DNA of 64,000 nt from Thermoplasmatota archaeon (GCA_029762535.1 JARVGK010000007.1:32001-96000); one strand, 5' to 3'; positions 20,484 through 49,771 are shown, counted from the stretch's first letter. Program-made: numbers and translations. Notes: generated from the sequence alone by a model not told the origin.

Positions 20484-20493
20484 AGTGGTGAAT

Positions 20494-22368: not shown

Positions 22369-22371
22369 GAC

Positions 22372-23193: not shown

Positions 23194-23201
23194 GTGATGT
23201 C

Positions 23202-23852
23202 ATGCCAGAAAAACTTGACGATGATATGCAGAAGTTGATGTCGGATATAACCGAGATGGCGAGTCTCTCCAAAGGCATGCTGATCGATTCCGTCCGAGCG
23301 CTCAAGGACCTTGACGGTGATCTCGCCAATGACATCATATCGAGAAAGGACAGGCTCTACGAGTACGATGACCGCATCGAGGAGCGGGCGTTGAAGATGC
23401 TCACGTTATACAGCCCCATGGCCTCGGACCTCAGAAGGATAGCCACCGTTTTCAAGATGATAACGTATCTGACAAGGATAGGCAGATACGGATACGACAT
23501 ATCAAAGATAACCCTGCATCTGGTGGGCAAGCCCCACGTGAAGAAACTCATAGATATCCCGCGCATGGCCGAGATCGTGGCGGGGATGATCGATGATGTC
23601 ATAGGCGCATTCCACACGGGCGACCTTGATAGGATCGCGGACCTGGCAGAGAGGGACAATATCGTGGATGAGACGAGGTATTCGATATTCAGGGAGTGCC
23701 TCACATACATGATGGAGGACCCATCGACCATAACCCGATGCACGGATTACATAATGATCGCGAGATACCTTGAGAGATGCGGCGATCACGCATGCAAGAT
23801 CGGTGAGAAGGTTCATTACATGATAACTGGCGAAAGGGTCGAGATCTCATAA
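23202..23852 (+). CDS. phoU: Phosphate signalling protein PhoU
   Basis: PMASDLRRI, RIGRY, RYLERCGDHA; follows pstB. Confidence 0.93.
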   Translation: MPEKLDDDMQKLMSDITEMASLSKGMLIDSVRALKDLDGDLANDIISRKDRLYEYDDRIEERALKMLTLYSPMASDLRRIATVFKMITYLTRIGRYGYDISKITLHLVGKPHVKKLIDIPRMAEIVAGMIDDVIGAFHTGDLDRIADLAERDNIVDETRYSIFRECLTYMMEDPSTITRCTDYIMIARYLERCGDHACKIGEKVHYMITGERVEIS

Positions 23853-24269: not shown

Positions 24270-24384
24270 AATATATAAAATATATATCTTTCCGGGCTTT
24301 ATATACAAGATATAGGGAATATTAATATCCTCTTCTTTGATTCCCGCGCTTGTAGAACGCGATAAAGCTTTGAAAGGTTGCGGG

Positions 24385-25458
24385 ATGGGAAATATGCTGT
24401 TCGATGGACCCGTGCGGAGAATGGAGAGGATATACTCCGGTTCACCTGGCAAAAGGATCGATGACTCGGACAGGATAGTGATATTCTCCGACATGCACAT
24501 GGGGAACAAGGGAAGGGCGGACGATTTCAAGGACAATGCCCACATCTTCAAAACGGCCATGACCTCCCTCTATGTACCTGAGGATTTCGATCTGATCATG
24601 AACGGGGACATAGAGGAGCTGCACAAGTTCAGGCCCAGGAGCGTCATGGATAGCTGGAAGGGCATATACGAAATGTTCAACGGCGCACTCGACAGAGGCG
24701 GTCTGGACAAGATATCGGGGAACCACGACCATAGGATCTGGCATACGGGGGTCCCGAACAGGGTCTCGGATATCATGACCGACGGATTGAAGCTCAGGTT
24801 CGGGTCCGACACTATTTTCGTCATGCACGGGCACCAGGCCTCGCTCAGGGCCGAGTCGCTGGAGAGATGGGTCCACTACGGGCTCAGGTACGGGGCCTCC
24901 CCCATAGGATTGAAGAACTATTCCTTCCCCCACGAGAGCGAACTCAAGTTCAGGATAGAGGAGAGGGTATATGATTTCTCGAAGAGGAAGAGGATTATGA
25001 CGATAATAGGGCACACACACCGCCCCCTCTTCGAATCCATGTCCAGGGCGGACTCGTTGAAGTTCAAGCTGGAGAGGCTGCTCAGGGATTACACTGACTC
25101 CACCGGGGATGAAAAGGCCAGGATCGAGAGGAACATACACATATACCATGCCGAGCTCGAGCGTCTCCTGCACAAGAACCCGAGGCCCGCCATGAGGGAG
25201 AGCCTCTACAACAGGGGCGTTCTGGTCCCGAACCTGTTCAACTCGGGATCATGCATAGGCAGGAAAGGGATAACGGCCCTTGAGATAGAGAACGGGAGGA
25301 TCTCGCTCGTGTACTGGTTCGATGCCGATAGGTCCACGAAATATTTCAACTACAACGGATTCAAACCCCAACGGGCGGAAGGATCCTCCATCTACAGGGT
25401 CGTTCTGAAGGAAGAGGACCTCTCCTACATATTCTCCAGGATCAATCTGCTCTCTTGA
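24385..25458 (+). CDS. Calcineurin-like metallophosphoesterase (LpxH/PlcP-like)
   Basis: SDMHMG, NGDIEE, GNHD, HGH, GHTH, NSGS motifs. Confidence 0.8.
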   Translation: MGNMLFDGPVRRMERIYSGSPGKRIDDSDRIVIFSDMHMGNKGRADDFKDNAHIFKTAMTSLYVPEDFDLIMNGDIEELHKFRPRSVMDSWKGIYEMFNGALDRGGLDKISGNHDHRIWHTGVPNRVSDIMTDGLKLRFGSDTIFVMHGHQASLRAESLERWVHYGLRYGASPIGLKNYSFPHESELKFRIEERVYDFSKRKRIMTIIGHTHRPLFESMSRADSLKFKLERLLRDYTDSTGDEKARIERNIHIYHAELERLLHKNPRPAMRESLYNRGVLVPNLFNSGSCIGRKGITALEIENGRISLVYWFDADRSTKYFNYNGFKPQRAEGSSIYRVVLKEEDLSYIFSRINLLS

Positions 25459-25462
25459 GATC

Positions 25463-25885
25463 TCAATGGCAGTAAGGGGTGAGGTCGCAGAGCTTCGAAG
25501 CGTTCACCTGCTTGAGCTTGCTCCTTTTACCCTTCTGGTACGGAAGCTCGTCCTGAACATCGATATGGATGGAGGGGGAGTTCCTTTCCATTGTCACAGG
25601 GTCGATCTTCCGTCCTATCCTCTGAACCTCTCCGTTCTTGCATATGCAGGTGTGGACGTCCCTTAGACGGTCTATCAGATAGCAGAACTCGCTCTCGTCG
25701 AGCTTCGAACCGGTCTTCTTCTGGTCATCCTTGAAGACGTAACCCAGCCCCTCGATGAAGACCGTCCCGTCATCGATGATCTCCTCCTCCCATTCCTCGT
25801 ACTTGCCCAGGGACCTGAAGAAGAGAAATCCCAGACCGGCCAGGAATAGCGTTATGGCGGATAGCGTCAGCCCGGAGATGATCAT
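25463..25885 (-). CDS. Hypothetical protein with N-terminal TM helix
   Basis: 140-aa ORF with hydrophobic N-terminus, converging on the phosphoesterase gene. Confidence 0.55.
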   Translation of the reverse strand: MIISGLTLSAITLFLAGLGFLFFRSLGKYEEWEEEIIDDGTVFIEGLGYVFKDDQKKTGSKLDESEFCYLIDRLRDVHTCICKNGEVQRIGRKIDPVTMERNSPSIHIDVQDELPYQKGKRSKLKQVNASKLCDLTPYCH

Positions 25886-26038: not shown

Positions 26039-26857
26039 TCACCAATCGTATGTGGAAGAGGTTGTGGACCTCATCCCGAACTGATCGGCCACATCGAGCC
26101 GTATCGAGTAGGTCATCGGTGACATCGGGAACGTGACCCTGGCCATCCTTCCGTTGAGGGGGAATTCCAGGTCGGGAGTTCCCGGGAGACCATCATGGTC
26201 ATATGAGATCGTCCAGTCCCAGCTCAATATCTCTCCGCCCACCCCCGGATGATCGGAAAGCGAACCGTCGAGGACCGGGACCGATATGTACGATGCCGAC
26301 CCCGCATCCCATTCCGTCTGGGTCCTTACAACGAAGACAGGGGACGGAGGGAGGAAGTTCCTGTTGAACGAGTTCCCGTAGCTGGTGGATATCTTGATGT
26401 TCAGATAGGACGTGAGCGCTATGTCCTTGTCCCCGCCGAAGAAGTAAGTGTCCGGATATACGATAATCGTCACCTGCTCAGTCGAATCCAATTTGCCCCA
26501 GGAGGCGTAATCCGTCCCGGTCTCGAGGAGAACTCCGTTCTTCATGATATCGAACTTCTCGACGACGTGTTCGTTTATGCTTATCATCCTGATGTAGGAG
26601 GTGCCCTCATGGAAGCTGGCGATGATCAATCCGATCTCGAACCACTCCGTTCCGGCAAGGTTCTCCTGAAGCGATATGGAGGATATGCCTATCTTCTCAT
26701 TATCGCTGAGGTCCTGTATCCTCTGGTTCCTCTGGTACGCGTCCTGGCGGTCAGCCACGAAAACGGCGAACGATGTGGCGGCGACGACGACGATCAGAAC
26801 GAGTATCAACGCTCCGACCACCTCGGAGACTCCCGAACCGCCCTTGATCTTCTTCAT
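26039..26857 (-). CDS. Archaeal type IV pilin-like protein with C-terminal PKD-like domain
   Basis: Class III signal peptide MKKIKGGSG|VSEVVGALILVLIVVVAA; C-terminal LDGSLS...ILSWDW...YSIRLDVADQFG. Confidence 0.85.
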   Translation of the reverse strand: MKKIKGGSGVSEVVGALILVLIVVVAATSFAVFVADRQDAYQRNQRIQDLSDNEKIGISSISLQENLAGTEWFEIGLIIASFHEGTSYIRMISINEHVVEKFDIMKNGVLLETGTDYASWGKLDSTEQVTIIVYPDTYFFGGDKDIALTSYLNIKISTSYGNSFNRNFLPPSPVFVVRTQTEWDAGSASYISVPVLDGSLSDHPGVGGEILSWDWTISYDHDGLPGTPDLEFPLNGRMARVTFPMSPMTYSIRLDVADQFGMRSTTSSTYDW

Positions 26858-27033
26858 CCTCGATGCTATGAGGGACTATCTAGATAAAATGCATCAATGT
26901 ATAGCCGATATTATATGGAGTGGAATATAGGACTATGAAGATACATTACTTCTATATGGGTCAGGTTTAAACGAGACGGGGTTCTACAGCGTTACCCGGG
27001 TAAAAGAGAACCTGGCAGTATGGATGTTTCGAG

Positions 27034-27648
27034 ATGGCATTGAAGATACCCGTTCCCGGAATGGACCAGTTCCTATGCGACATACCGGACGGTTCGATGC
27101 TCGTGATGTCCGGGGGCTTCGAGGGCACACAGTCATTCCTCGCACAGTCCATCGGGTACGGGGCCTACAAATCCGGAAGGGAGGTGACCTACGTCACCTC
27201 GAGGGCGATCCCGGACATCATGGGCGAGGTAATGAGATTCGAACCGGGAGTGGTCCCTTTCTACCTTATAGAGAACGTGCCTCTAAATGATTGGAGAACG
27301 TTCATATCCTCAAAATGCGTCCTGATAGTGGACTCATACTCCCTGCTCGTTATGAACGTGGAACTCCCTCAACTGAGGGACGGGCTGATGGAGATCAAGA
27401 CGATTGCGAAGGAGCGCGGGGCCACGTTGGTCCTTGTGGCCCACCCTCCTCTCATCGATGAAAGGAGAACGTCCGTCACGGAATACTTCGCCGACTCTCT
27501 TGTCGAGTTCAGGTCCCAGGAGGAGGACGAGTTCGTACGAAGATACCTGAGGGTCCACAAATGGTACGGTACGATACTGGAGCAGCTTATCTACTACAGG
27601 ATCGATGAAGGGCGAATGGAGATAGACCTCAGGGCCAGGATAGTGTGA
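27034..27648 (+). CDS. RecA-fold KaiC/RAD55/FlaH-like protein, degenerate Walker A
   Basis: IPVPGMDQFL.DIPDGSMLVMSG, LIVDSYS, YFADSLVEF, RYLRVHKW; lacks GKT/S. Confidence 0.7.
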   Translation: MALKIPVPGMDQFLCDIPDGSMLVMSGGFEGTQSFLAQSIGYGAYKSGREVTYVTSRAIPDIMGEVMRFEPGVVPFYLIENVPLNDWRTFISSKCVLIVDSYSLLVMNVELPQLRDGLMEIKTIAKERGATLVLVAHPPLIDERRTSVTEYFADSLVEFRSQEEDEFVRRYLRVHKWYGTILEQLIYYRIDEGRMEIDLRARIV

Positions 27649-27658
27649 GGACGTTCTT

Positions 27659-29173
27659 ATGATACAATCCAAGGGATACGAGAGATTCGGCCTAACGGGC
27701 AACCCTTTCCGGGACCTTGCCTCCGAGACGCTCGAGACCATCGACATCTTCCACGTCAGACAGGAGATGGACGATCATCTGCGAATGATAATCGACGAGA
27801 TCTTCGAGAAGCAGTCCAAGGCGGTCGTGGCCATACTCGGAGCCCTGGGCATGGGCAAGACCCAGAGGCTTCTCCTGATCCAGAGCTGGGCCAGGGATAA
27901 GAAGGCCTACTGCGTGTTCAGGTCCATCAATCCCCAGGCAAAGCTCGTCATAAGCGATGTCATAAAGACCTTGATCGATACGGTCCCCCTGACATTCTTC
28001 GAGAGGAACATCTCCGCGCCCAGATTCTATTCGGACCTGAAGAAGGCATACAGGTCCTCCCGGAAGAAGTTCGACCCGGAACTGATCGGCAGGGCCATCG
28101 CCGGAGCCCTCAACGCCCGTTCCCCTTCGATACTTATACTTAACGACCTTCACAACGTCGATCCAACGGCCGAGCTGCCGGATTTCCTTCAGGTGCTGTA
28201 TTCCATAGTCAACAACCTGGACGAGGGCGTCATGATAGCGATAGGGTCCAACTCCGCATATTTCGACGGGATAATGAAGAGGCATCAGTCCCTCGAGGAG
28301 AGGATAAACTACAAGCTGGAGGTGCAGCCCCTCATAGACACGGAGGCCCAGGAGATGGTGGCGAAGAGGCTGACGGCGAAGAGGCTCGTCGAGGACCTAA
28401 ACCCCATATACCCCTTCAACAACGATTCCATATCGATATTGAACTCGGAATCACATGGAAATCCCCGGCAGGTCCTCAAGCTCTCGGACAGGATCATCGA
28501 CCAGGCCGCGACCGAGAGGGTCATACAGATAGACGCCCAGTATGCGATGGATATACTCGAGGGATCGAGACAGAAGAGGTCCCTTCCTCCGGCCCCCCAT
28601 GAGATCCTCAAGAAGCTGAGGGAGGAGGCCAGGGTCAAGAGGCCGGCCATCCCGTCTCGGACCCCCCCGGGCATCTCAACAGAGTTCGAGAAGAAGGTCA
28701 AGGAATACGAGCATGCCCTGGAGAAGATGGAGAAGGCCCTGGAGAGGAAAGAACCCCTGCCTGAAAAAGAGAAGAGGATGCCCGGGGCAGCGGTCAAGGT
28801 CGATCTCCCGGTCGATGCTCCTCTGGAGGTCGCTCCATCGATGCCCGATCCGATCGGGACGGTGCCCCCGGTCAAGGTCGATCTCCCCGTCGATACTCCT
28901 CTGGAGGTCGCTCCCCCGATGACCGGTCCTACCACGATCGTGCCCAAGCCCTCCCTGGACGAGGAGCTGCCGCTCATCATCAAGAAGAAGGTGACGATGA
29001 GAAAATTGGAGACCGTCACCGAGGACGGCATTCCGGCGCCTCCGAAGAGCATCTTCATAATTGAGGAGAGGGAAATGCCCGGTCCTCCCAGGAAAGAGAA
29101 GGGTTCCAAGGGCGAACCGTCCGAGGATGCCGTTCTCTCCAGGTACAGGTCGGTTCCTCCGACGCGGAGTTAA
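27659..29173 (+). CDS. ExeA-like AAA+ ATPase with Pro-rich disordered C-terminus
   Basis: FGLTGNPF N-motif, Walker A GALGMGKT, variant Walker B ILILNDLH, SHGNPRQ. Confidence 0.75.
   Translation: MIQSKGYERFGLTGNPFRDLASETLETIDIFHVRQEMDDHLRMIIDEIFEKQSKAVVAILGALGMGKTQRLLLIQSWARDKKAYCVFRSINPQAKLVISDVIKTLIDTVPLTFFERNISAPRFYSDLKKAYRSSRKKFDPELIGRAIAGALNARSPSILILNDLHNVDPTAELPDFLQVLYSIVNNLDEGVMIAIGSNSAYFDGIMKRHQSLEERINYKLEVQPLIDTEAQEMVAKRLTAKRLVEDLNPIYPFNNDSISILNSESHGNPRQVLKLSDRIIDQAATERVIQIDAQYAMDILEGSRQKRSLPPAPHEILKKLREEARVKRPAIPSRTPPGISTEFEKKVKEYEHALEKMEKALERKEPLPEKEKRMPGAAVKVDLPVDAPLEVAPSMPDPIGTVPPVKVDLPVDTPLEVAPPMTGPTTIVPKPSLDEELPLIIKKKVTMRKLETVTEDGIPAPPKSIFIIEEREMPGPPRKEKGSKGEPSEDAVLSRYRSVPPTRS
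28791..28935 (+). repeat. Two-copy in-frame tandem repeat, 78-bp period (VKVDLPVDxPLEVAP)
   Basis: cggtcaaggtcgatctccc.gtcgat.ctcctctggaggtcgctcc at 28791 and 28869. Confidence 0.9.
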
Positions 29174-29307
29174 TGCAGTAAGTATCCTACTTTTATCTAT
29201 GTAAACCACTGTCCCTAACGCCTGGTATATCATATTATTTAGAGTAAATTATTGCCGTAGGCAGGGCTTAAGGCATGTATCGGTCCTCGGTGTCCTCGGT
29301 GTAGGAC

Positions 29308-29565
29308 ATGATACGGGAACTAAGGCATCAAACGGTGGTCGAGGCCATCTGGAACAGAGGGGGCTGCGCCTCCATGAAGGACATCGAGAACTTGATGTAC
29401 CAGCATCTCAAGGGGCCTTACCACTCCGATCTGGGCTTCATGTATCTGGAGGACCGAACGGCGATCATGAGGCTCAAGATCGACGAGATCCTCGACGACC
29501 TGCGCAGGAACGGGCTCGTTGAGATGATCGATGAGGACCTGTTCGCACTCACCGACGCCTCGTAG
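29308..29565 (+). CDS. Small winged-helix-like protein
   Basis: 85 aa ending LDDLRRNGLVEM..DLFALT, a typical wHTH recognition helix and wing pattern. Confidence 0.6.
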   Translation: MIRELRHQTVVEAIWNRGGCASMKDIENLMYQHLKGPYHSDLGFMYLEDRTAIMRLKIDEILDDLRRNGLVEMIDEDLFALTDAS

Positions 29566-29625
29566 ATGTAGATGCATCTTCCATGGTCCGAACGAAGCGT
29601 GGGCGCAAGACCCGATCCGCTCAGG

Positions 29626-31029
29626 CTAGAACACGGCTATGGAGAATAGAAGGACCACGACCAGGGCGAGAACGAGCGAGTGTACCAGTCCGTAGCGGAT
29701 CTTGCCCTCGGTTATCTTCCCTATTATCGTTCCAGATCCGATCCCCATTATGATCGCCAGATGGAAGAAGCGCCTCTTCAGCGTCAGAAGCCCCATCTTG
29801 ACGACAGATGCGCCCCCTTCCGACCCTTCGAGTCCCTGGAAGCCGAAGACCATGGACATGTCCAGATTCTCGAACTTGGGATAGACGTCCATAAGCATGT
29901 ATATGACCGTGAGGAGAACGCCCAAGGCCATGTATATTATAGTTATCTGAATGGTCATCTGCCTCCTTCTCTCGGCCTTGACCTTCACGAAATCGTCCAG
30001 ATCCCTCGCAGCCCTGTGCACGACGACGGCTATGTTGCCCCCTATCTTCGTTGATTCGGCGATGAGCGTCGTGTACCTCTTCACCACCCTGCTGTTCGAG
30101 GGAGCGGCCACGATGTCCAGGGCCTCTTCGAACGCCCGCCCCGCCATGATGTTCTTCGAGGCGATCCTGAGGTATTTTGACATGACGCTCGAGTCGGTCT
30201 TCGCTATCTCGACTATCGCCCTGGCCGGGTCTATGCCGCCTCTCATTCCGTCCGCGATCCCGAACAGGAGCTGGGCGAACGCCGCCTCGTACCTGTTTAT
30301 CCTCTTGAGCTCCCTCTGCGAGTCGATCGCGTACGGGGTCGTTCCGATGAAGAAACCGATTATCAGAACGATCTCGATCCCGAACCTTCCCAGGTCCGGA
30401 TGGTCGTGGACGTAGAATAGTCCCAGTATGGTGAAGGTGATGGCGGTGAGGATCGGTACGTAGAGTATTAGATACTTCTGCTGCACCGGATGCGTTATGA
30501 GGAACTTCTTGAGCCTGAATCTCCTCTTGGCCCTCAGATAGATATAACCGGATATGGCCAGTACCGCGAGGATGGCGAATATCACGCTGATGAAAACGAG
30601 GACCTGCATCGAGGAGGGGAGGGTGAGTTCGAACCCGGGCTCCGGTTCGTCGCTGACGATGAAGACCGAATCGACCATCGCCTCGTTCCCCGCGTTGTCC
30701 CTGATGATGAAGGTGAGATTGTGCGGGCCGCTCGATAGGGTGTATATAGTGTCTATCTTGACCGTCATGTCGGTCTCGTTCACTATGAGGTCGAAGTAGG
30801 CGGAGACGTCGAAATCGTCGATGTAAAGAACCGCGCTTCCCGTGTCAATGCCCGAATAATCGGTGTACTTTATCTGTATCACCGGGTTGGGATCGTATAT
30901 GGTCTGGTTCGCCGCGGGATAGACCAGGGTGACGATCGGCGGATCCGTGTCCTCTGCTGATGCATAGGACATGATGAGGACCAGGGGCAACAGGAGAAGG
31001 ACCGCTGCGGGGAACGTGAACGATCTCAT
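29626..31029 (-). CDS. Type IV pilus platform protein (FlaJ/TadC, T2SS-F) with N-terminal signal peptide and Ig-like domain
   Basis: Signal peptide ...ASA|EDTDPP, Ig-like domain ending GPHNLTFIIRDNAGN, then TM helices and T2SS-F domain (QLLFGIADGMRGG, IGGN, GKIRYGLVH). Confidence 0.85.
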   Translation of the reverse strand: MRSFTFPAAVLLLLPLVLIMSYASAEDTDPPIVTLVYPAANQTIYDPNPVIQIKYTDYSGIDTGSAVLYIDDFDVSAYFDLIVNETDMTVKIDTIYTLSSGPHNLTFIIRDNAGNEAMVDSVFIVSDEPEPGFELTLPSSMQVLVFISVIFAILAVLAISGYIYLRAKRRFRLKKFLITHPVQQKYLILYVPILTAITFTILGLFYVHDHPDLGRFGIEIVLIIGFFIGTTPYAIDSQRELKRINRYEAAFAQLLFGIADGMRGGIDPARAIVEIAKTDSSVMSKYLRIASKNIMAGRAFEEALDIVAAPSNSRVVKRYTTLIAESTKIGGNIAVVVHRAARDLDDFVKVKAERRRQMTIQITIIYMALGVLLTVIYMLMDVYPKFENLDMSMVFGFQGLEGSEGGASVVKMGLLTLKRRFFHLAIIMGIGSGTIIGKITEGKIRYGLVHSLVLALVVVLLFSIAVF

Positions 31030-31938
31030 TCAATCCACCTTTGCATAGGATGCCGATATGAACAGGTTCATGGCGATCACGGAGAAGGGGATCAGGAAAT
31101 ATGTCATGATTATGAGAAGGGTGCTCGCGTCTATCCCGTTGAACGTCGATGCCAGCGTCTCCATGAGGAACGCCGCCACCCCGGCGAACAATATTCCCAT
31201 CAGCACCAGGCTGGTATAGATCTCCATCAGGGTGCCGAGGCCCTCTATGAACTCCTTCTGTATGTCCCTCTTGAGTTTGAGGCTCGCATCGGCCTTGTTC
31301 CTGAGATACGTGTCCATGTCGCCGCCCTCGTGTATCATGTTCGAGAAGTCCCAGAGCATCTCCCTGAGATGCTGGGAGGGAGTCTCCTTGGCCGTCTCGC
31401 TTATGGCGGTGATTATGTCCTTCCCCTCCACGTCCAGGTGGTATATTATCTTCCTGAACTCCCTGGACATGTACTTCGAGTCCTTTCTCTGGGAGATCTT
31501 CCTCATTATCTGAACCGGGGAGAGGCCGGTGGATGCCAGGATGGAGAGCTCGCTCATGGTGAAGGGCAGCTCCTTGTCTATCTCCGACTTCTTCTTGGAT
31601 ATCCTCGAGGAGATGATAAGGGGATAGGAGAATATCGTGACGAGAAGGGAGACGGCAAAGAGCGAGGCCGTGAACAAGGGCCAGCCTTCCACGTTGAACA
31701 TCACCCTGAAGACGAGTATGGATATGATAAGGACCGCCGCGGCCGAGAACAGCGTGGCGTATAACATCATGGAGAGGTACATCCCCGGGGACATGTTCAC
31801 GTCCCCCTTGGACAGCCTGAGCTTGAGCCGGTTCATGTCGTATTTTAGATCCAATGTGCGACCAAGGGACTGATAGGAGAAACGCTTGTACCTCTCCAGG
31901 AACCCCTCCCAGGCGGAGGGGTCATCCTTTCTTGACAT
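31030..31938 (-). CDS. Type IV pilus platform protein (FlaJ/TadB/TadC, T2SS-F)
   Basis: IDKELPF...LASTGLSP, GKDIITAI...TPS, HEGGDM.TYL. Confidence 0.88.
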   Translation of the reverse strand: MSRKDDPSAWEGFLERYKRFSYQSLGRTLDLKYDMNRLKLRLSKGDVNMSPGMYLSMMLYATLFSAAAVLIISILVFRVMFNVEGWPLFTASLFAVSLLVTIFSYPLIISSRISKKKSEIDKELPFTMSELSILASTGLSPVQIMRKISQRKDSKYMSREFRKIIYHLDVEGKDIITAISETAKETPSQHLREMLWDFSNMIHEGGDMDTYLRNKADASLKLKRDIQKEFIEGLGTLMEIYTSLVLMGILFAGVAAFLMETLASTFNGIDASTLLIIMTYFLIPFSVIAMNLFISASYAKVD

Positions 31939-33673
31939 CGATGGCCCCCATCGATTCGAGGTTGACCATGGCCTTCGTGGGGTCCATGTAGAATTCGTTT
32001 ATCGCCCTGCTCACGTCCTTGTAATACGTCAGGTTCTTCTGGTCCATCAGCTTGAGGTATTTCTCCTTGCGGTATATCTCGTCCATTATGGACTGGAGCG
32101 TCTTTCCGGTCGATCTCGCTATGTCCTCTATCAGGAAGCTCCTCCCCGTGAACTTGAACGCATCGTTCGTGGGATCCCACGTGAAGGGGGCGTTCGTCAG
32201 AAGGTTCTTTGAGGATGGCTCGATGTCCAGGACCTCCGTCACGCCCTTGACGCGCCTGACCCTCCTGCCCCTGTACACGACCTGCCCCTGGAAAACGACG
32301 GCGTCGAGCGACATGAACAGGGACCTGGGTATGTCCATCGGGGGGTTCTCCACCCTGTGTATCAGCTCGTCGATGGAGCCGGCGTGTATCGTCGCCATCG
32401 CGGCGTGCCCGACGGCTATGGCCTGGAACAGGGTGAACGCCTCCTTGCCCCTGACCTCCCCCACTATCACGTATTCCGGTCTCTGTCTCAGGGCCGCTAC
32501 CAGCAGGTCGAACATCGATATGCTCCCCGAGGACCCTCCCGAGGCGCTGACCCCGAACCCCCCCCTTGATACGGACTGTATCCAGTTGGTGTGGTCGATG
32601 TGGATCTCGGGGGTGTCCTCTATGGAGACCACCTTGTCCTCCGGCTTCACGAACATGCACAGCGCGTTCATGAGCGTGGTCTTGCCCGAGGCCGTGCCTC
32701 CGGAGATGAGAAGCGACCTCTTATACTCGATTATCGTCCAGAAGTAGGCGAGCTGGAAGGCGGAGATCGATCCGAACCTCATGAGGTCCACAGGTGAGAT
32801 GGGATCGTGGGAGAACTTCCTTATCGTGAAGGTGGAACCTTTTCTCGTGACCTCGGAGCCCAGCGTCAGGTTGATCCTCGAGCCGTCGGTGAGGGTGGCG
32901 TCGAGTATGGGCTGATAGACGGAGACGTGCTTTCCGGCGACCTGGGCGAGTTTTACGACATAGCGGTTCAGCTCCACATCGGAGGGGAATTGTATGTTGG
33001 TCTTCATTGACCCCATCCCCCTGTGGAATATGTAGATGGGGATGTTGGGTCCGTTGCAGGATATGTCCTCTATGAACGGGTCCTTGATGAGGGCGTCCGC
33101 CCTCCCCCAGCCGATGAGGTCCCTCTGGAGGTAGTAGAAGAGGACGCGCCTCCTCTTCTCGTCAAGGTCTATGTTGTAGAGGTCCAGAACTGACTGGTAG
33201 AGGCCGAGTATGTAGTTCCTGAGCTGGTCGGAGCGTCCGTACTCGGAACCCTCGGAGATCGGGAGCTCGTCCTGGTCCATTGCGACCTCCATCTTCGACT
33301 TTATGCTCTGGATGAGGTCCTCCTCGCCCTCTTTGAGCCTGGGCTCCTTTATGAGGTACTTCATCTCGCCCTCTTTTCTGTCATATGTGATGTTGACGAA
33401 GGAATAAGGAGGGTTCACCGGATAGGTCAGGTTGACCCCGAGCTTCTCCTTGTCCAGTTCCCGCCTCATGAAGTTGAGCTCGCGCTGGATGATTATCTTC
33501 TCGGAGATCTCGCCTTTCTTCCTCAGCTGGGATTCGATCTCGCGGGCGCGCTTTCGAAGCTTTTCCCGGAACTCGGGATCCTCCATCCTGTCGTCCGTGA
33601 GCTTCTCCTTCTTCATGAAGGGCAGGTCCGCCGATGCGGTCCATTTTACAATTCTATCCATTAATCCTGTCAA
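31922..33673 (-). CDS. Type II/IV secretion ATPase (FlaI/VirB11 family)
   Basis: DPFIEDISCNG, DGSRIN, FTIRKF, GGTASGKTT, IEDTPE, ALRQRPEYVIVGEVRG, GHAAMATIHA. Confidence 0.95.
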   Translation of the reverse strand: MTGLMDRIVKWTASADLPFMKKEKLTDDRMEDPEFREKLRKRAREIESQLRKKGEISEKIIIQRELNFMRRELDKEKLGVNLTYPVNPPYSFVNITYDRKEGEMKYLIKEPRLKEGEEDLIQSIKSKMEVAMDQDELPISEGSEYGRSDQLRNYILGLYQSVLDLYNIDLDEKRRRVLFYYLQRDLIGWGRADALIKDPFIEDISCNGPNIPIYIFHRGMGSMKTNIQFPSDVELNRYVVKLAQVAGKHVSVYQPILDATLTDGSRINLTLGSEVTRKGSTFTIRKFSHDPISPVDLMRFGSISAFQLAYFWTIIEYKRSLLISGGTASGKTTLMNALCMFVKPEDKVVSIEDTPEIHIDHTNWIQSVSRGGFGVSASGGSSGSISMFDLLVAALRQRPEYVIVGEVRGKEAFTLFQAIAVGHAAMATIHAGSIDELIHRVENPPMDIPRSLFMSLDAVVFQGQVVYRGRRVRRVKGVTEVLDIEPSSKNLLTNAPFTWDPTNDAFKFTGRSFLIEDIARSTGKTLQSIMDEIYRKEKYLKLMDQKNLTYYKDVSRAINEFYMDPTKAMVNLESMGAIDVKKG

Positions 33674-33874
33674 GGCGCCTTGGCTACTCTTATTACGATA
33701 TTAATTACTGTTTCACGTAAAGGACATACAATATATAGGGATACGGAGGGGATCTTTCCCCAATGGAGAGGAAGTTGGGATCGGTAAGACAAGACAACTA
33801 TTTGGAGAACGCCTATATGCCCTTCTTTGGGTCAGGGAAATGGGTCCCGAAGGGGATCCAAGTAGGTGAAAGAA

Positions 33875-35014
33875 ATGAAGCACATGAAAAACGACAAGGC
33901 AGGGGTCTCCCCGGTCATTGCCACGTTGATATTGGTGCTCATCGCCGTAGCGGCGGGAGTTGCCTTTTTCGCATGGCAGTCTGGCTGGCAGGAAGACGCC
34001 ACAGGTAACATAAGCAATGCGAACGCACAGACGGAGATAACCATCGGTGGATCCTCCACCGTCTATCCTTTCACGGCAGTTGCGGCTGAGGCTTTCATGG
34101 AAGCCAACCCCACCGTGAAGATCTCCTACCAGTCCGGTGGATCCGGTGCAGGAACCGCTGGCGTCAGGGAGGGTGTCATCGATATCGGTGCCGCCTCCTC
34201 CGACAGGACCCAGGCCAAGCACTTCCCCGACCACCCCGACGTGGTCATCACCGCCGTCGGCTATGACGCCGTCGGTGTCGTCGTCGATGATGGCAACACC
34301 AGGATAAACGATATCAACGCAACCGTCGCAATCGAGATCTTCACAATGGTCATCACCGACTGGAACCAGGTCCCTGTTGCATCTGGCGCGTCCGGAACTG
34401 GCACAACTGGTGCAGCTGGTTCTGAGACCACTGTAACAGTCTCCACCGGAACCCTTGCAATTGGCAGGTACAGGATGTGGTCTGCAACAACTCTCGTGAG
34501 GACTGTCGATGTTATAGCTGCAAATACGCTCCCCTCAGATCTCTTCGGAGCATCCGCATCCATCTCCTGGCAGGTTATCACCTCCGCTACCTCCGCTCCT
34601 ATCGAAGTCTACGACAGGGCTGACAAGTCCGGAACCGAGGAGTGCTTCAACGAGAAGCTCCTCGGCCTCGATGGATCCTCCATCCCCGAAGGTGATCAGA
34701 CCGGTGTCGCAGGCAATCAGGAAATGCTCGACCTCTTCGAGGCTGGCGCACCCAACGCTATCGGATTCATCTCCACCGGTGTCGCCACCTCCGATGTGAA
34801 GCTCGTCACCCTCGACGGCGTCGCCGCCACCGAGGAGAACATCGCTGACGGGTCCTACACCGCCCAGAGGCCCCTGAACTATATGTACATCCCCTCCCAG
34901 CTCGGCGGAAAGCTCGCCATCGTTGAGGCGTACATAGACTTCTGCATGTCCCCCAAGAACAATATTGACTTCGCCCACTCCGTGGACTACCTCTCCTGGT
35001 ATGACCTCGAGTAA
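33875..35014 (+). CDS. Pilin-PstS fusion: phosphate-binding protein with archaeal class III (pilin) signal peptide
   Basis: MKHMKNDKAG|VSPVIATLILVLIAVAAG followed by PstS motifs GGSSTVYP, GGSGAG, DIGAASS, DRADKSGT, YTAQRPLNY; AGGTGA RBS. Confidence 0.9.
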   Translation: MKHMKNDKAGVSPVIATLILVLIAVAAGVAFFAWQSGWQEDATGNISNANAQTEITIGGSSTVYPFTAVAAEAFMEANPTVKISYQSGGSGAGTAGVREGVIDIGAASSDRTQAKHFPDHPDVVITAVGYDAVGVVVDDGNTRINDINATVAIEIFTMVITDWNQVPVASGASGTGTTGAAGSETTVTVSTGTLAIGRYRMWSATTLVRTVDVIAANTLPSDLFGASASISWQVITSATSAPIEVYDRADKSGTEECFNEKLLGLDGSSIPEGDQTGVAGNQEMLDLFEAGAPNAIGFISTGVATSDVKLVTLDGVAATEENIADGSYTAQRPLNYMYIPSQLGGKLAIVEAYIDFCMSPKNNIDFAHSVDYLSWYDLE

Positions 35015-35047
35015 TCGGGTTGATGGCAAAATATCAAATAACATCTC

Positions 35048-35095
35048 GGAGGGTTTTTTATTAAACCCTCCTTTTTTTTTATTTTCTTTCTTTTT
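35048..35095 (+). terminator. Hairpin + long T-tract between pilin-pstS and pstCA2
   Basis: GGAGGGTTT-tttatt-AAACCCTCC (perfect 9-bp stem) followed by T9 and further T runs. Confidence 0.75.
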
Positions 35096-35127
35096 GAAAT
35101 GTTTCGTCTCTAGGATAGGGTAGTAAA

Positions 35128-38100
35128 ATGGATCTCAAGGTTCCGAATTGGGCTGTTGCGATAGTTCAGGCATTGATATTCGTCATAATCTTCTTCCCCG
35201 CCCTCTTCGCATTGGACTCATTCTATCTACAATTGCCTTTCTTCATCCTGGAATTGATCATGATCTTCATCGTTCTCACCAAGAAGGATATGAGATTCTT
35301 TTACATGTTCTGGCAGTTCCAGATATATCTCCTCATTCTATTCAAGGTGATATTCGATTACAATACAACGTTCAAGACGATCGATTCTGAACCATTGGCG
35401 ATCATTGTCATCTCGTTCTTCATAACATTCCTGGAAGCATTGATCCTTGTGGGATTCATCCTTCGGGAAAAGGGCGTTAAGCCCATACTTGTGACACTGT
35501 CCTCAACGACCAGCATCGTTGTGCTGCTCATTATCATTTTTATTTTCAAGGAAGGTCTCCCGGCTTTTTCGGAGAACGATCCTATCGAGTTCTTGACAGG
35601 AAATAGCTGGACGGCAGATTATGAACCATCCTTGGAAGATACGATCCTGATCGAGGTCGTTGTTTCGGATTACGATCACGAAATATCGATACCGGATGAT
35701 AGGCTGTATCTCGCAATAGATGAGAACCATACTGTTCCCATCGATCTGAAGAACACCGGATCGAAGGATGATACCTATCTGTTAAGTTTGGAATATCCCT
35801 CCGGTCTATCGGTTCAGGATCATCAAAGAACTGTTTTTTTAAGATCTGGATCGGATCATACTTTCGATATCGATCTTTCTTCAAATATTTCCATGGACTT
35901 GGATCTGAGGATCATTGTGGGATCCATGAATGGAAGTATATCAAAGGAAAGGACAATAGACCTGGCTTTCGGAGACGTTGGGATCGATGCGGGGCCGGAG
36001 TACTTCCATTATCTGAATTCGGAGATGAATGTCCCTCGCACTCCTTTTTGGGTGAAGAATACCGGGAACGTAGTTGAGACCTATTCCGTGACATTGACCT
36101 TCGATGAAGAGATCATCAAACCTTTTGTGACCGGGACCGACAATGATTGGGACCACGATAACGATACAGTTGACATCACCCTGGACCCCATGGAAACCGT
36201 TTCCTTCAACGTGATAACAAGGATCCTGAACCTTCGCCCGTTCAGGTCTACAATAACGATCGATGTCGTGTCAAGGACGGATCCCGGCATATATGACAGC
36301 ATAGTGATCGACTTCGAGTATCGGGACAGGAGCTATTTCGATCACGATCAAACTTCTTTCGTCGTATCCAAAGGCTCCGATGTCATCATCCCGGTCTTCG
36401 TCAATATCACAAACCCGGCAAATTCCAATTTCTTCATACTGGTTGAAGATGGGAACGGGCCCCTGGAGACCTTCAGCCTATCGTATGATTCCGTAAATAT
36501 CGATGAAATCGATGAAAAGGTTCCGATCAACCTATCATCGGGTATGAAGACCCTTCTATTGACCGTCAGGTCCAATTCGAATATCGGAGGATCGGAGAAT
36601 ATCACCCTTAATATCACATTGGAGAGGGAAGGGACCTATCCTTCCTTCGGCATCGGCCCGATGATCGTCGGCACGTTCATCACCGTCCTTGTCGCATTGA
36701 TCATAGCCGTTCCATTAGGACTGGGTACGGCGATCTTTTTGGCGGAATACTGCCCCAAGAAACTGCACATCTTCCTGCGTCCTATGTTCGAACTTTTGGC
36801 CGGGATCCCTTCGATAGTTTACGGCCTCTGGGGATATTTCACATTGGTACCCTTCTTCAGGGACAACATATACGGCCCGGTGAGTGGATCTTTGGGATTG
36901 GCGATCCCCTTCCTAAGGATCACACCGGAGACCCCCAGTTCCGAGGGGACCGTGATCGTTGCCGGTTTCGTCCTATCAATTATGATACTTCCGATCATCA
37001 TAACCCTTTCCGAAGATTCTATACGAGCCGTTGCCAGGAGCCTGAAGGAGGGATCGCTCTCATTGGCCACGACTAAATGGCAGACGATAAGAGGCGTGGT
37101 CCTGAAAAGAGCGAAAAGCGGGATCATATCCTCTATCATTTTGGCCATGGGAAGGGCCATAGGCGAGACCATGGCTGTTATAATGATACTCAGGATAGCG
37201 ACGAATTATCCGAGTTCGCTCTTCGAACGGGCAGGGTCAATGACCGCGGTCATCGCCGGGACCTTCGGATGGGCATTCGATCTCGATCTTTCAAGACATG
37301 CCGTCTTTGGGGTTGCGATCGTGCTGTTCATGATCGTCTTCGTTCTTAACCTGATAGTCTTCAGGATACAGAACGGTGAGAAGAAGGGAAGTATCGCTTT
37401 CCGGTGGGTAAATCGTATCGTCGAGAAGGCCATCAATTATTGTTTCAGGAAAAAAGAAGACATGAGGACCCTTCCGACCAAGGGACCGGTGTTCGATAAA
37501 AAGAATATGACATCACTTGGCTTTTTACGGTTCCAGGAATACCTGTTCAGGTCATTGTTCGCGCTATCGGCAATAGTGATCTTCATATTCCTCCTGCTTG
37601 TCCTAAGCAATGTTTTCATTACGGGAATATCATCGATGAAATTATACTATCTTTTCGAAAAGGAAGTCGCGGGAGGATTGGAGGACGGTGGATTCCTCAA
37701 TGCCATTCTCGGTTCCCTTCAGCTGACGTTCTTGGCATTATTGATCTCCTCCATATTCTCGTTGGGAGCGGCCATATACATTACACAGTTCAGCAAACAG
37801 AACAATATCCTAACGAGGACCATACTCTTCTCTTCCGATACCCTTGCTGCGACGCCTTCGATCGTATTCGGGGCATTTGGGTTCATTTTCTTCTCCATCG
37901 AGCTCAAACTAGGCCTGTCGATGTTGTCGGCAGCGCTTACTCTGTCAATAATGGTGATCCCCCTCCTTTTAAGAAGTTCGATAGAAGCTCTCAACAGCAT
38001 ACCCAGAGAGCTTGGGGATGGTTCCCTGGCATTGGGAGCGAGTAAATGGCAGACGGTGTGGAACGTGATATTGCCGCCGGCATTGGGGGGAATATCAAGT

Positions 38101-38373
38101 GGCGTTATCCTTTCCATCGGCAGGGCCATCGGAGAGACGGCGGCCATCCTTTTCACGGCAGGTTATGCCCTGACCATAAACAACTCCATAATGTCATCGG
38201 TTGCGACCATGCCGAATATGATCTACAATTACTATGGTCTCAGCTCCCACAATCCCGCCCTTCAGGATAAATTATATTCATGTGCCCTTGTCTTGATCGT
38301 CCTGGTATTGATCCTGAACTCCATCGCCCGTTTATCACAGATAAGAACGAACAAATTGAAGGGGAATTATTAG
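35128..38373 (+). CDS. Giant PstC-PstA fusion permease with extra N-terminal TMs and ~340-aa extracellular Ig-like insertion
   Basis: LAGIPSIVYG...GRAIGETM (PstC) and LAATPSIVFG...GRAIGETA (PstA); insert with LKNTGSKDDTY and VKNTGNVVETY motifs (CARDB/NEW3-like). Confidence 0.88.
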   Translation: MDLKVPNWAVAIVQALIFVIIFFPALFALDSFYLQLPFFILELIMIFIVLTKKDMRFFYMFWQFQIYLLILFKVIFDYNTTFKTIDSEPLAIIVISFFITFLEALILVGFILREKGVKPILVTLSSTTSIVVLLIIIFIFKEGLPAFSENDPIEFLTGNSWTADYEPSLEDTILIEVVVSDYDHEISIPDDRLYLAIDENHTVPIDLKNTGSKDDTYLLSLEYPSGLSVQDHQRTVFLRSGSDHTFDIDLSSNISMDLDLRIIVGSMNGSISKERTIDLAFGDVGIDAGPEYFHYLNSEMNVPRTPFWVKNTGNVVETYSVTLTFDEEIIKPFVTGTDNDWDHDNDTVDITLDPMETVSFNVITRILNLRPFRSTITIDVVSRTDPGIYDSIVIDFEYRDRSYFDHDQTSFVVSKGSDVIIPVFVNITNPANSNFFILVEDGNGPLETFSLSYDSVNIDEIDEKVPINLSSGMKTLLLTVRSNSNIGGSENITLNITLEREGTYPSFGIGPMIVGTFITVLVALIIAVPLGLGTAIFLAEYCPKKLHIFLRPMFELLAGIPSIVYGLWGYFTLVPFFRDNIYGPVSGSLGLAIPFLRITPETPSSEGTVIVAGFVLSIMILPIIITLSEDSIRAVARSLKEGSLSLATTKWQTIRGVVLKRAKSGIISSIILAMGRAIGETMAVIMILRIATNYPSSLFERAGSMTAVIAGTFGWAFDLDLSRHAVFGVAIVLFMIVFVLNLIVFRIQNGEKKGSIAFRWVNRIVEKAINYCFRKKEDMRTLPTKGPVFDKKNMTSLGFLRFQEYLFRSLFALSAIVIFIFLLLVLSNVFITGISSMKLYYLFEKEVAGGLEDGGFLNAILGSLQLTFLALLISSIFSLGAAIYITQFSKQNNILTRTILFSSDTLAATPSIVFGAFGFIFFSIELKLGLSMLSAALTLSIMVIPLLLRSSIEALNSIPRELGDGSLALGASKWQTVWNVILPPALGGISSGVILSIGRAIGETAAILFTAGYALTINNSIMSSVATMPNMIYNYYGLSSHNPALQDKLYSCALVLIVLVLILNSIARLSQIRTNKLKGNY

Positions 38374-38374
38374 T

Positions 38375-38521
38375 TCACTGCTTCGGATAGTCGAAGATCT
38401 CGGGCGCGTCCTCGGCTATCACGTGCACTCTGGGCTTGACCTTCATGCTCATCTCGATCAATCTCTTCGTGGAGAGGACCAACGCCACGAAGATCACCGC
38501 AAAGGAGATCCCCGCTATGAT
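38375..38521 (-). pseudogene. 3' remnant of a paralogue of the 41080-41709 gene (147-bp direct repeat of 41080-41226)
   Basis: 9 mismatches in 147 bp by manual count, 8 of them silent; in-frame stop at 38582-38584 upstream and no start for a full gene. Confidence 0.8.
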
Positions 38522-41079: not shown

Positions 41080-41709
41080 TCACTGCTTCGGATAGTCGAA
41101 GATCTCCGGCGCGTCCTCGGCTATCACGTGCACTCTGGGCTTGACCTTCATGCTCATCTCGATGAGCCTCTTCGTGGAGAGGACCAAAGCAACGAAGATA
41201 ACCGCGAAGGCGATCCCCGCTATGATGAACGGGATCGTCCTCGCGTTGAAGAGGGTCTCGGAATCGATCCGGATCACCTTAACAACGACGTTGAGCCTGT
41301 ACTCTCCCTTCCCGGAGATGAGAATGAATATCCTAGCATCCTCCGATCCCTCGTTGATGACATCAACGAATAGCTGCTCGCCCTTGTCGATGGTCTGACG
41401 GAACGTCCCGTTGATGGGGTCCCTGTTCTCATCATACACCATGAACTTTATGAAGCCGGAGCTCTGCTGGAATATGCTTATGTTGACCTTCCTGTTCGCC
41501 GGGATCGAGTAGCTGAAATAATCGATATCCTCCACATCGCCTAAATTGACATAACCCCTGACGTAGTCGTTGCCGATCATCCTGTTCGCCCTGTCGAAGG
41601 AGTCGTTGGGCTCCCTCTCGTTGAAATCGGATCCCGAACAGATCCCCGAAAATAACACCGTCGATAAGATGAACACACTCAGAATGCGGAGGAAACGCAA
41701 GGAGATCAT
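41080..41709 (-). CDS. Secreted PPC-like (EPND motif) domain protein with C-terminal TM
   Basis: Signal peptide, EREPNDSFDRAN, DIDYFSY, C-terminal TM and cytoplasmic tail. Confidence 0.75.
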   Translation of the reverse strand: MISLRFLRILSVFILSTVLFSGICSGSDFNEREPNDSFDRANRMIGNDYVRGYVNLGDVEDIDYFSYSIPANRKVNISIFQQSSGFIKFMVYDENRDPINGTFRQTIDKGEQLFVDVINEGSEDARIFILISGKGEYRLNVVVKVIRIDSETLFNARTIPFIIAGIAFAVIFVALVLSTKRLIEMSMKVKPRVHVIAEDAPEIFDYPKQ

Positions 41710-44052: not shown

Positions 44053-44116
44053 GCGACCATATTCGCTATCAAGGTAGTTTATGATTGTCAATATATAATA
44101 TATTGGACCATATATA

Positions 44117-49761: not shown

Positions 49762-49771
49762 CGCGGACCCT

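Follow-up and report, generated by a model that had tools for sequence, protein, structure and literature searches.

Why should a predicted phosphate-binding protein of an archaeon begin like a pilin, and why should its gene stand head to head with those of a type IV filament machine? The question is raised by a locus in a 64,000-nucleotide stretch of DNA from a Thermoplasmatota archaeon (GCA_029762535.1, JARVGK010000007.1:32001-96000), hereafter the window. An initial annotation had placed here an assembly ATPase, two TadC genes, a PstS, a permease and a second pilin, embedded between two pst/phoU loci; all of these genes are confirmed, and both flanking loci (19464-23852 and 43105-45903) are real. 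The explanation that we favor, and to which we would give about an even chance, is a self-contained phosphate module in which a second Pst importer is combined with a dedicated type IV filament machine that mounts its binding protein, PstS2, at the cell surface.

Organization of the locus

As judged from their sequences, the second importer consists of PstS2, PstCA2, PstB2 and AbrB-PhoU regulators, and the machine of a FlaI-like ATPase, two platform halves (TadC1 and TadC2), a FlaH-like protein with a dead P-loop, an AAA_22 protein and pilinA. The features are as follows.

19464-23852: pstS1-pstCA1-pstB1-phoU, flanking canonical pst locus
26039-26857, minus strand: pilinA, pilin with class III signal, 272 aa (Pilin_N 8e-6)
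27034-27648, plus strand: FlaH/ArlH-like protein of KaiC fold (Pfam ATPase/KaiC 6.7e-8)
27659-29173, plus strand: AAA_22-type P-loop protein (AAA_22 3e-4)
29626-31029, minus strand: TadC2, platform half (T2SSF 1.9e-11)
31030-31938, minus strand: TadC1, platform half (T2SSF 4.3e-13)
31922-33673, minus strand: FlaI/VirB11-type assembly ATPase (T2SSE 2.8e-32)
33674-33874, no strand: divergent intergenic region with hairpin (sequence and four-way alignment)
33875-35014, plus strand: PstS2 with class III N-terminus (PBP_like_2 2.2e-24)
35128-38373, plus strand: PstCA2, fused PstC-PstA permease, 1081 aa (NCBIfam PstC and PstA)
43105-44217, minus strand: AbrB/MazE-PhoU regulator copy 1 (PhoU 1.7e-13, MazE_antitoxin 3.5e-6)
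44117-45436, minus strand: AbrB/MazE-PhoU regulator copy 2 (PhoU 1.2e-8, MazE 7e-5)
45148-45903, minus strand: PstB2, ABC ATPase (NCBIfam PstB 385 bits, cut-off 343)

The limits of regulator copy 1 are those of its listed ORF, the real start probably lying slightly downstream, and those of copy 2 delimit a maximal ORF, in which translation probably begins around 45.15-45.2 kb, after pstB2. Phosphate genes, a metallophosphoesterase among them, are densely packed in the window.

A predicted phosphate-binding protein with the N-terminus of a pilin

PstS2 matches Pfam PBP_like_2 (87 bits, cut-off 27) and aligns in two blocks to the solved PstS structures 4gd5, 4q8r and 4h1x, while its NCBIfam ptsS_2 score (145 bits, cut-off 206.6) is lowered by a 72-aa insertion. 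Residues of the predicted phosphate-binding motifs (GSS/T, GGSG, D, R...SGT) show no variation among 30 class III PstS relatives. The pilin-type class III signal ascribed to this protein in the initial annotation is borne out by its N-terminus, KAG/VSPVIATLILVLIAV, which scores 22.5 bits against TIGR02537 arch_flag_Nterm (cut-off 20) and in which the motif KAG/VSPVIATL is followed by a hydrophobic helix. PstS2 is the sole binding protein among approximately seven class III proteins in the window's genome, the canonical PstS1 of which carries a lipobox signal.

Among relatives, conservation of the PstS helix reaches 57.5% against 32-40% in the lobes, with the helix figure inflated by word- and pattern-based retrieval, and in pilinA the corresponding values are 61% and 26-34%; the pilin-type helix thereby appears to be the best-conserved part of both proteins, as in true pilins. 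At position -2 of the PstS cleavage site relatives have K, Q, E, Y or M, a variability that makes processing less than certain. A class III helix may, after cleavage, act merely as a membrane anchor. A regular pilus lattice would not easily accommodate the globular PstS domain, which measures ~330 aa and is carried by a flexible linker.

The gap between the divergent ATPase and pstS2 genes measures 192-201 bp, in agreement with an earlier estimate of ~200 bp. Translation of pstS2 would start from the ATG at 33875, preceded by an AGGTGA ribosome-binding site (33864-33869) and, immediately 5' of that site, a hairpin (33842-33859) for which a four-way alignment shows a compensatory change.

Components of the filament machine

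The minimal archaeal type IV filament core is complete (T2SSE, two T2SSF genes, Pilin_N and Peptidase_A24), and ORFs scanned across ~19-50 kb of the window include no FlaF, FlaG, FlaC/D/E, FlaX or other archaellum genes. The best NCBIfam match of the assembly ATPase is FlaI (410 bits, cut-off 550). TadC1 and TadC2 are half-size TadC/FlaJ platform genes with one T2SSF domain each; TadC1 is 39-54% identical to its relatives, and TadC2, present at 45 of 49 loci, bears a signal peptide and an Ig-like ectodomain (Big_3_2 0.0035, residues 56-127). The FlaH-like protein, annotated with DUF7125 in relatives, matches NCBIfam ArlH (3e-11) at 43 bits, below the 215 cut-off. The Walker A pattern GxxGxGK[ST] is absent from the commonest P-loop-region patterns of 52 aligned FlaH-like sequences (51 relatives and that of the window); the protein, its Walker A degenerate, probably serves the ATPase as a scaffold or regulator. 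The AAA_22 protein, by comparison, retains GxGKT together with a Walker B 'ND' and a Pro/Lys/Glu-rich tail. Its motifs are conserved in the commonest patterns of 37 aligned sequences, its closest Atlas clusters are archaeal AAA_22 families, and its presence at 32 of 49 loci suggests a conserved accessory.

PilinA, the locus's only class III protein besides PstS2, begins GSG/VSEVVGALILVLIVV and matches Pilin_N at 8e-6. Its AF2 model (pLDDT 90.8) combines a long helix (9-53) with two beta-sandwiches and finds, by Foldseek, the archaellins 9eq7 (TMt 0.71) and 5z1l and the Pyrobaculum pilin 8fk7, making it a likely structural filament subunit. Its earlier description as PKD-like agrees with motif and fold but finds no Pfam PKD match. 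Among 49 loci whose upstream flank reaches at least 9 kb, tblastn detected homologues at 33, most of those listed beginning with a class III N-terminus. A prepilin peptidase of the A24 family is encoded elsewhere in the genome (contig C14, L147:1448-2380, minus strand; Peptidase_A24 28.6 bits, cut-off 26.5) and shows both Asp motifs, HDLRTRRVPD and GGADAK.

A second permease and its displaced ATPase

The permease, originally noted as an atypical PstC-PstA, proves to be a fusion (PstC TIGR02138 418 bits, cut-off 196; PstA TIGR00974 375 bits, cut-off 193) with four extra TM segments at its N-terminus and three Ig-like domains. These form a ~360-aa ectodomain that interrupts PstC in its first outside loop; it is modeled as three beta-sandwiches (pLDDT 82) and holds 8 of the protein's 11 N-glycosylation sequons. 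Ten long PstCA2 orthologues that we aligned are all located in such modules. Many relatives' modules have no Ig-stalk permease, or no adjacent permease at all, and the Ig-stalk part of the model is therefore lineage-specific.

The orphan PstB had been assigned to the module on presumption, and relatives support this: their pstB either adjoins pilinA or converges on pstCA. Modules L001, L003, L010, L015, L016 and L019 encode a pstB 60-64% identical to PstB2, mostly directly 3' of pilinA; in L003 the two genes follow each other on the same strand with a 25-bp gap, an order repeated in L010, L015, L016 and L019, and in L001 a tandem AbrB-PhoU pair after pstB matches the pair in the window. AbrB-PhoU homologues occur at 31 of 49 loci. 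In the window, PstB2/AbrB-PhoU are set apart from the rest of the module by a defence cassette with 147-nt repeats on either side, and we read PstB2 and the two regulators as ancestral parts of the locus that were separated by its insertion. PstB2 most likely energises PstCA2.

Conservation of the linkage between PstS and the machine

Synteny across archaea, chosen beforehand as a test that could refute the initial reading, is conserved in several orders and in both search directions. Starting from PstS, we obtained 31 species-level loci that extend at least 9 kb to either side, and 28 of them contain the ATPase, against a chance of ~4% that a T2SSE gene lies within 10 kb of a random gene, by our own estimate from ~5 copies per 2-3 Mb. 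The same 31 loci hold TadC2 (29), the FlaH-like protein (26), AbrB-PhoU (21) and pilinA (20), and the ATPase is present at PstS loci of 66 of 80 GTDB species. Apparent exceptions are mostly resolved, the ATPase lying ~10 kb further on in L053 and at another locus in L065, with others reflecting contig breaks; a search of the incomplete genome of L084 returned no ATPase match.

The module occurs in Thermoplasmatota, Methanosarcinales, Methanomicrobiales and Methanocellales. Thermoplasmatota have the divergent arrangement (55 loci, with a median gap of 265 bp), and in Methanomicrobia and Methanosarcinales the order pstS-pstC-pstA-ATPase-tadC-tadC runs along one strand (10 loci), the partnership persisting although gene order was rearranged. 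In a phylogenetic tree, all 67 PstS-linked ATPases fall in one clade (SH-aLRT 97), with 21 T2SSE paralogues from six genomes outside it. Starting instead from the ATPase, a search of 201 genomes recovered five orthologues (57-63% identity, 755-810 bits), clearly set off from paralogues (at most 46% and 482 bits), and a class III PstS adjoins five of five orthologues compared to none of 24 paralogue loci. Taken together, the synteny found from PstS, the ATPase clade and the ATPase-first result indicate that the linkage is not due to chance. The identities of the genes, the class III signal at the start of PstS2, the presence of a peptidase gene and this two-way linkage with a dedicated ATPase clade are direct observations. 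Being sparse among the genomes sampled (6 of 201, and 2 of the 24 from the family to which the window belongs), the module is an accessory trait.

Proposed mechanism and alternative explanations

Every part of the initial reading that is open to sequence analysis has passed, and to that extent it is supported. Under the mechanism that we propose, low phosphate would lead the AbrB-PhoU regulators to turn on the divergent operons. Class III signals would insert PstS2 and pilinA into the membrane, the A24 prepilin peptidase would trim both, and the ATPase and platform would pull their pilin-type helices out of the membrane and build from pilinA a pseudopilus or short fibre with PstS2 placed along its length, at its tip or at its base. 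So raised above the membrane, PstS2 could capture phosphate and hand it over to PstCA2, whose three-domain Ig stalk would reach toward the loaded protein, with import driven by PstB2. In this scheme we infer the phosphate regulation, the cleavage of PstS2, the action of the machine upon it, the fibre and the role of the stalk.

The best-surviving alternative, which we nevertheless consider rather unlikely, is that the genes are co-regulated neighbours with separate jobs: PstS2 would be a helix-anchored monomer independent of the machine, and ATPase, TadC and pilinA would form a starvation-induced adhesion pilus for mineral or organic phosphate or for biofilm. PilinA by itself has full pilin architecture, the AbrB-PhoU regulators would account for co-regulation, a few class III PstS copies (L053, L065) are distant from the machine, and archaeal binding proteins are usually membrane-anchored (PMC3387779). 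However, this ATPase clade was never seen without an adjoining class III PstS (five of five orthologues, against none of 24 paralogue loci), and the ATPase-linked PstS is always class III and never lipobox, though PstS1 of the same genome is a lipobox protein. Conservation of the PstS helix also far exceeds the needs of an anchor, and in Methanosarcinales the machine genes come straight after pstA on the same strand.

It is improbable that the machine is instead a pseudopilus akin to type II secretion, serving to release or expose PstS2 or some other phosphate scavenger, even though its model, Hxc of Pseudomonas aeruginosa, lies in a cluster with a PstS paralogue, is induced when phosphate is low and is required for PstS-rich surface appendages (PMC2242829, PMC3949141), and a conserved FlaH-like protein and extra AAA protein are unneeded by simple pili. 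Here PstS itself bears the pilin-type signal and helix and therefore resembles a subunit rather than folded cargo, and PstCA2 could receive no phosphate from a PstS that had left the cell. Archaea of this group are not known to possess an outer membrane that would have to be crossed.

In many organisms type IV filaments take up DNA, and DNA outside the cell is known to serve as a source of phosphorus. A pilus for DNA uptake or another task that had joined the phosphate regulon, with PstS2 merely an importer component encoded next to it, would suit a module set among phosphate genes and a metallophosphoesterase, but we think it very improbable, as relatives' modules contain no conserved DNA-binding, nuclease or translocase genes and such a pilus gives no reason for PstS to carry a class III signal. 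Chance adjacency without functional link is scarcely credible: some neighbours in a window so dense in phosphate genes may be accidental, but two-way synteny over several archaeal orders, in two gene orders and with a dedicated ATPase clade, contradicts it.

Returning to the phosphate module, a broader and more tentative reading, which we regard as possible but doubtful, is that several archaeal orders build a phosphate-harvesting filament in which PstS is polymerised with pilinA by the dedicated FlaI/FlaJ/FlaH-like machine, the fibre widening the capture radius and docking, in this lineage, on the Ig-stalk permease. Such a fibre may undergo extension and retraction and thereby return loaded PstS to the transporter. 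The pairing of PstS with its own pilus machine across many archaea, cultured methanogens included, points to an undescribed and testable phosphate-scavenging surface device.

Comparison with known systems

The closest parallel is the Sulfolobales bindosome (Bas), in which ABC binding proteins likewise carry class III signals and are cut by prepilin peptidase (a cut only predicted for PstS2), and in which a type IV filament-type ATPase and membrane platform, represented here by genes only, are needed for surface function (PMC13705601, PMC4858521). The shared logic is that of a binding protein mounted on pilus machinery. The module differs in its predicted substrate, phosphate in place of sugars; in having one machine per adjoining PstS, where a single Bas machine of Sulfolobus serves several binding proteins encoded with their transporters; in its split platform; in its FlaH-like, AAA_22 and large two-domain pilinA proteins, where Bas has the small pilin-like BasABC, none of which occur in this locus; and in its hosts, Thermoplasmatota and methanogens rather than Sulfolobales. 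We know of no Sulfolobus bindosome in which a filament of binding proteins has been resolved. Orthology with Bas was considered and rejected, the scores being 193 bits for BasE (NF053672, cut-off 1000) and 40 for BasF (NF053673, cut-off 1300).

A PstS paralogue is also present in the gene cluster of Hxc of P. aeruginosa, a machine from the type IV filament superfamily that low phosphate induces and that is needed for PstS at surface appendages (PMC2242829). Hxc is, however, a bacterial system with an outer-membrane secretin, and its PstS and DING proteins are Sec-exported folded cargo and not pilin-like. The pairing of PstS and machine has no common origin in the two systems.

With euryarchaeal type IV pili of clade 2 of Makarova et al. 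2016, the module shares a core of two TadC genes and KaiC-family ATPases; phosphate and transport are unmentioned in that survey. The FlaH-FlaI-FlaJ motor core of the archaellum is matched by a FlaI-like ATPase, a two-piece FlaJ/TadC and a FlaH/KaiC-like partner, the last of which, in contrast to archaellum FlaH, lacks Walker A. Identification as an archaellum was rejected, with FlaI (410/550 bits), FlaJ (77/550) and ArlH (43/215) all below cut-off.

Finally, a 2026 paper in PLoS Genet (preprint April 2026) proposed, from a genome-wide screen yielding 4397 candidate class III binding proteins, that such proteins 'functionalise' archaeal type IV filaments (PMC13705601). The initial annotation's view that a phosphate-specific equivalent is uncharacterised holds in that neither 'phosphate' nor 'PstS' appears in the main text of that paper, which describes no machine dedicated to one binding protein, but the general idea had already been proposed there. 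To this shared idea, the module described here adds a specific clade of filament ATPases physically linked to PstS.

Organisation of the module

The gene content of this locus, and its recurrence across archaea, point to a module in which PstS2, the binding protein of a second phosphate importer, would be processed and mounted by a dedicated type IV filament machine. The pilin pilinA would serve as the structural subunit, PstS2 would capture phosphate for the permease PstCA2 and its ATPase PstB2, and AbrB-PhoU proteins would exert control over the module. Judged from sequence, we hold the prospect that a type IV filament machine acts on PstS2 to be evenly balanced, and regard PstS2 as a doubtful, though possible, component of a true filament. 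Every gene named in the initial annotation was present in our ORF map and family scans, the principal features being:

19464-23852: canonical pstS1-pstCA1-pstB1-phoU operon, upstream of the module
26039-26857: pilinA, class III N-terminus (Pilin_N, 8e-6)
29626-31029, minus strand: TadC2, one T2SSF domain, signal peptide and Ig-like ectodomain
31030-31938, minus strand: TadC1, one T2SSF domain
31922-33673, minus strand: T2SSE/FlaI-type ATPase (family scan)
35128-38373: pstCA2, PstC and PstA scores both over curated cut-offs
43105-45436, minus strand: two tandem AbrB/MazE-PhoU genes
45148-45903, minus strand: pstB2 (PstB equivalog, 385 bits vs 343)

The pstS2 gene is divergent from the ATPase/TadC genes across a gap of ~200 bp; its likely start codon is the ATG at 33875, preceded by AGGTGA (33864-33869). 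The product (N-terminus MKHMKNDKAG|VSPVIATLILVLIAVAAGVAFFAW) scores 22.5 bits against the NCBIfam archaellin/pilin N-terminal model, over the cut-off of 20; the N-terminal helix is followed by an 11-residue linker and then the PstS fold (PBP_like_2, 2.2e-24), whose alignment to solved PstS structures is broken into two blocks by a 72-residue insertion. About seven proteins in the genome carry a class III N-terminal domain, PstS2 being the sole binding protein among them, and an A24 prepilin peptidase is also encoded. Conservation is highest in the pilin-type helix, both in PstS (mean pairwise identity 57.5%, partly inflated by the route of sequence retrieval, vs 32-40% in the lobes) and in pilinA (61% vs 26-34%). 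PstS1 of the canonical operon (19464-20483), which shares 25% identity with PstS2, carries the lipobox IVAGC, such that the genome anchors its two phosphate-binding proteins differently. This lipobox, together with the lack of any other class III binding protein, ruled out the class III signal as the organism's ordinary anchor for binding proteins.

Five nucleotides before the pstS2 ribosome-binding site lies a hairpin of six to seven bp (33842-33859, GGGTCCC-GAAG-GGGATCC), which is kept in three relatives, shows a compensatory change (GGCCC/GGGCC) in locus L011, and may represent a leader or regulatory element.

Among the assembly genes, the single T2SSF domain in each TadC indicates that the normal two-domain platform is divided between two genes. 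Structure prediction for pilinA gave a 45-residue helix and two beta-sandwiches (pLDDT 90.8), with structural matches that include archaellins and one archaeal type IV pilin; a Pfam scan returned Pilin_N only, with no PKD or other named domain. FlaH/KaiC-like and AAA_22 genes are placed between pilinA and TadC2 (27034-29173). The commonest P-loop-region patterns among 52 aligned FlaH/KaiC-like sequences lack an intact GxxGxGK[ST] Walker A, while the AAA_22 protein, in the patterns listed, retains GxGKT, shows 'ND' where Walker B usually has its acidic pair, and ends in a long Pro/Lys/Glu-rich tail. Downstream of pilinA, a 140-aa ORF (25463-25885) had no detectable homologue in the related loci searched.

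The main rival explanation, which we consider unlikely, pairs a PstS that is merely anchored by its helix with a neighbouring adhesion pilus under phosphate regulation. Less likely are a role in secretion, as in the Pseudomonas type II system Hxc (PMC2242829), and one in DNA uptake.

The permease and surrounding genes

PstCA2 begins with four additional membrane segments, and its first outside loop contains an insert of ~360 residues. Of the 11 N-glycosylation sequons in the protein, 8 lie in this insert, which is predicted to form three tandem beta-sandwiches (pLDDT 82). A Pfam scan of the insert found no named domain, Foldseek gave generic tandem Ig-like matches only, and a word-based search, which is no measure of rarity, recovered one other protein (35% identity); the insert is fast-evolving.

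Downstream of pstCA2, a low-GC stretch encoding a defence pair (AAA_21 ATPase/RloB-like) separates it from pstB2 and the phoU genes, and is flanked by 147-nt direct repeats (38375-38521 and 41080-41226) that are 94% identical. One of these repeats is the 3' end of a secreted-protein gene (41080-41709). In the locus of the closest relative (L001, PstS 66% identical), pstB-phoU-phoU lie convergent ~3 kb beyond pstCA, and the defence cassette is absent. Conservation of this trio indicates that the seemingly 'orphan' PstB at 45148-45903 is an original part of the module. In L003, pstB follows pilinA on the same strand after a gap of 25 bp, an order repeated in L010, L015, L016 and L019. The module is also flanked by genes for a calcineurin-like metallophosphoesterase (24337-25458) and a TPM-domain phosphatase (49072-49845), consistent with a wider phosphate-scavenging island.

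Conservation and phylogeny of the module

A protein search identified ~70 PstS homologues sharing the class III N-terminus, and all six examined on long contigs have a T2SSE ATPase and a pair of T2SSF genes as neighbours. Pattern scanning of one genome per species yielded 80 loci, mostly from Thermoplasmatota MAGs, the rest from Methanolobus, Methanomethylovorans, Methanoregula, Methanoculleus and Methanocella; three Methanolobus records are named strains, placing the module in cultured members of that genus. The ATPase was found in 66 of the 80. Where at least 9 kb was available on both sides (n=31), the ATPase was present in 28 loci, TadC2 in 29, FlaH-like in 26, AbrB-PhoU in 21 and pilinA in 20, bearing out the expectation that the synteny of a pilin-type PstS with ATPase/TadC genes would be conserved in other archaea, and ruling out their chance adjacency. 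Most loci apparently without the ATPase are explained by an orthologue ~10 kb further (the L053 genome), at a different locus within its own genome (L065), or by contig breaks; no match was present in the incomplete genome of L084. Thermoplasmatota loci are arranged as divergent operons (55 loci, median gap 265 bp), and in 10 loci of Methanosarcinales/Methanomicrobiales the genes share a strand, ordered pstS-pstC-pstA-ATPase-tadC-tadC. L006, the sole locus of this order inspected for a pilin, has one of class III close by.

In five Methanosarcinales loci (L006, L040, L046, L051 and L064) the ATPase (~730 aa) and two tadC genes occupy the usual place of pstB, directly after pstA and on its strand, and a search out to 10 kb revealed no pstB. 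A few class III PstS/module contigs (L068, L087 and L085) sit in MAGs that bear a Nitrososphaerales or Acidimicrobiales label, probably through misbinning and not because those are the true hosts.

The association also holds when approached from the ATPase. We built a tree from 94 T2SSE ATPases, among them module genes re-extracted from six genomes along with their paralogues. All 67 PstS-linked ATPases form a single clade (SH-aLRT 97) with the re-extracted module genes inside, and all 21 other paralogues of the same genomes fall outside. Searching 201 genomes of the phylum with the ATPase returned five orthologues at 57-63% identity (755-810 bits), all other hits being at most 46% (≤482 bits). 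PstS adjoins 5/5 of these orthologues, each time with a class III N-terminus, compared with 0/24 of the best paralogue loci; three of the five were already known via PstS, the search route being independent. The module occurs in 6 of the 201 genomes, and in 2 of 24 in the window's own family, a sparse distribution that marks it as an accessory trait.

Elsewhere in the window's genome (contig C33, L008:9572-14008), pilus machinery is paired with a PstS-like fold for a second time. Here genes for a T2SSE ATPase of another clade and for a 547-aa protein matching no known family are directly followed by one for a 282-aa PBP_like_2 protein, which has a lipobox-like N-terminus and no GSST phosphate motif; after it comes a 1642-aa FG-GAP/transglutaminase/Ig protein.

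Implications and relationship to known systems

Phosphate is often a limiting nutrient, and Pst is the textbook high-affinity importer. To our knowledge, experimental understanding of the bindosome comes from Sulfolobus sugar uptake only, and its structure is still unresolved. A Pst binding protein mounted by its own pilus machine would, if confirmed, represent a new coupling of filaments to nutrient uptake, and would be the first instance of the bindosome idea in which the machine is both dedicated and genetically linked. Cultured carriers of the module include Methanolobus bombayensis DSM 7082, M. psychrotolerans YSF-03 and Methanolobus sp. ZRKC2 (loci L040, L059 and L064), which makes this hypothesis directly testable. 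Our analysis further suggests a likely function for an entire clade of type IV filament ATPases in archaea, and likewise for their conserved FlaH-like and AAA_22 partners, to which published surveys assign none.

A 2016 survey of archaeal type IV pili by Makarova et al. mentions neither phosphate nor transport (PMC4858521). A 2026 paper puts forward the idea that type IV filaments are functionalised by class III binding proteins, and it places these proteins mostly beside ABC transporters, not filament clusters; the words 'phosphate' and 'PstS' are absent from its main text (PMC13705601). Our literature search combining PstS or phosphate with bindosome, prepilin or class III found no description of the module. 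Archaellum membership was rejected on the NCBIfam test, and orthology to the Sulfolobus Bas system by failed NCBIfam tests for BasE and BasF. The likeness to the Sulfolobus bindosome resides in the way of working, whereas the module's parts list differs from that of Bas.
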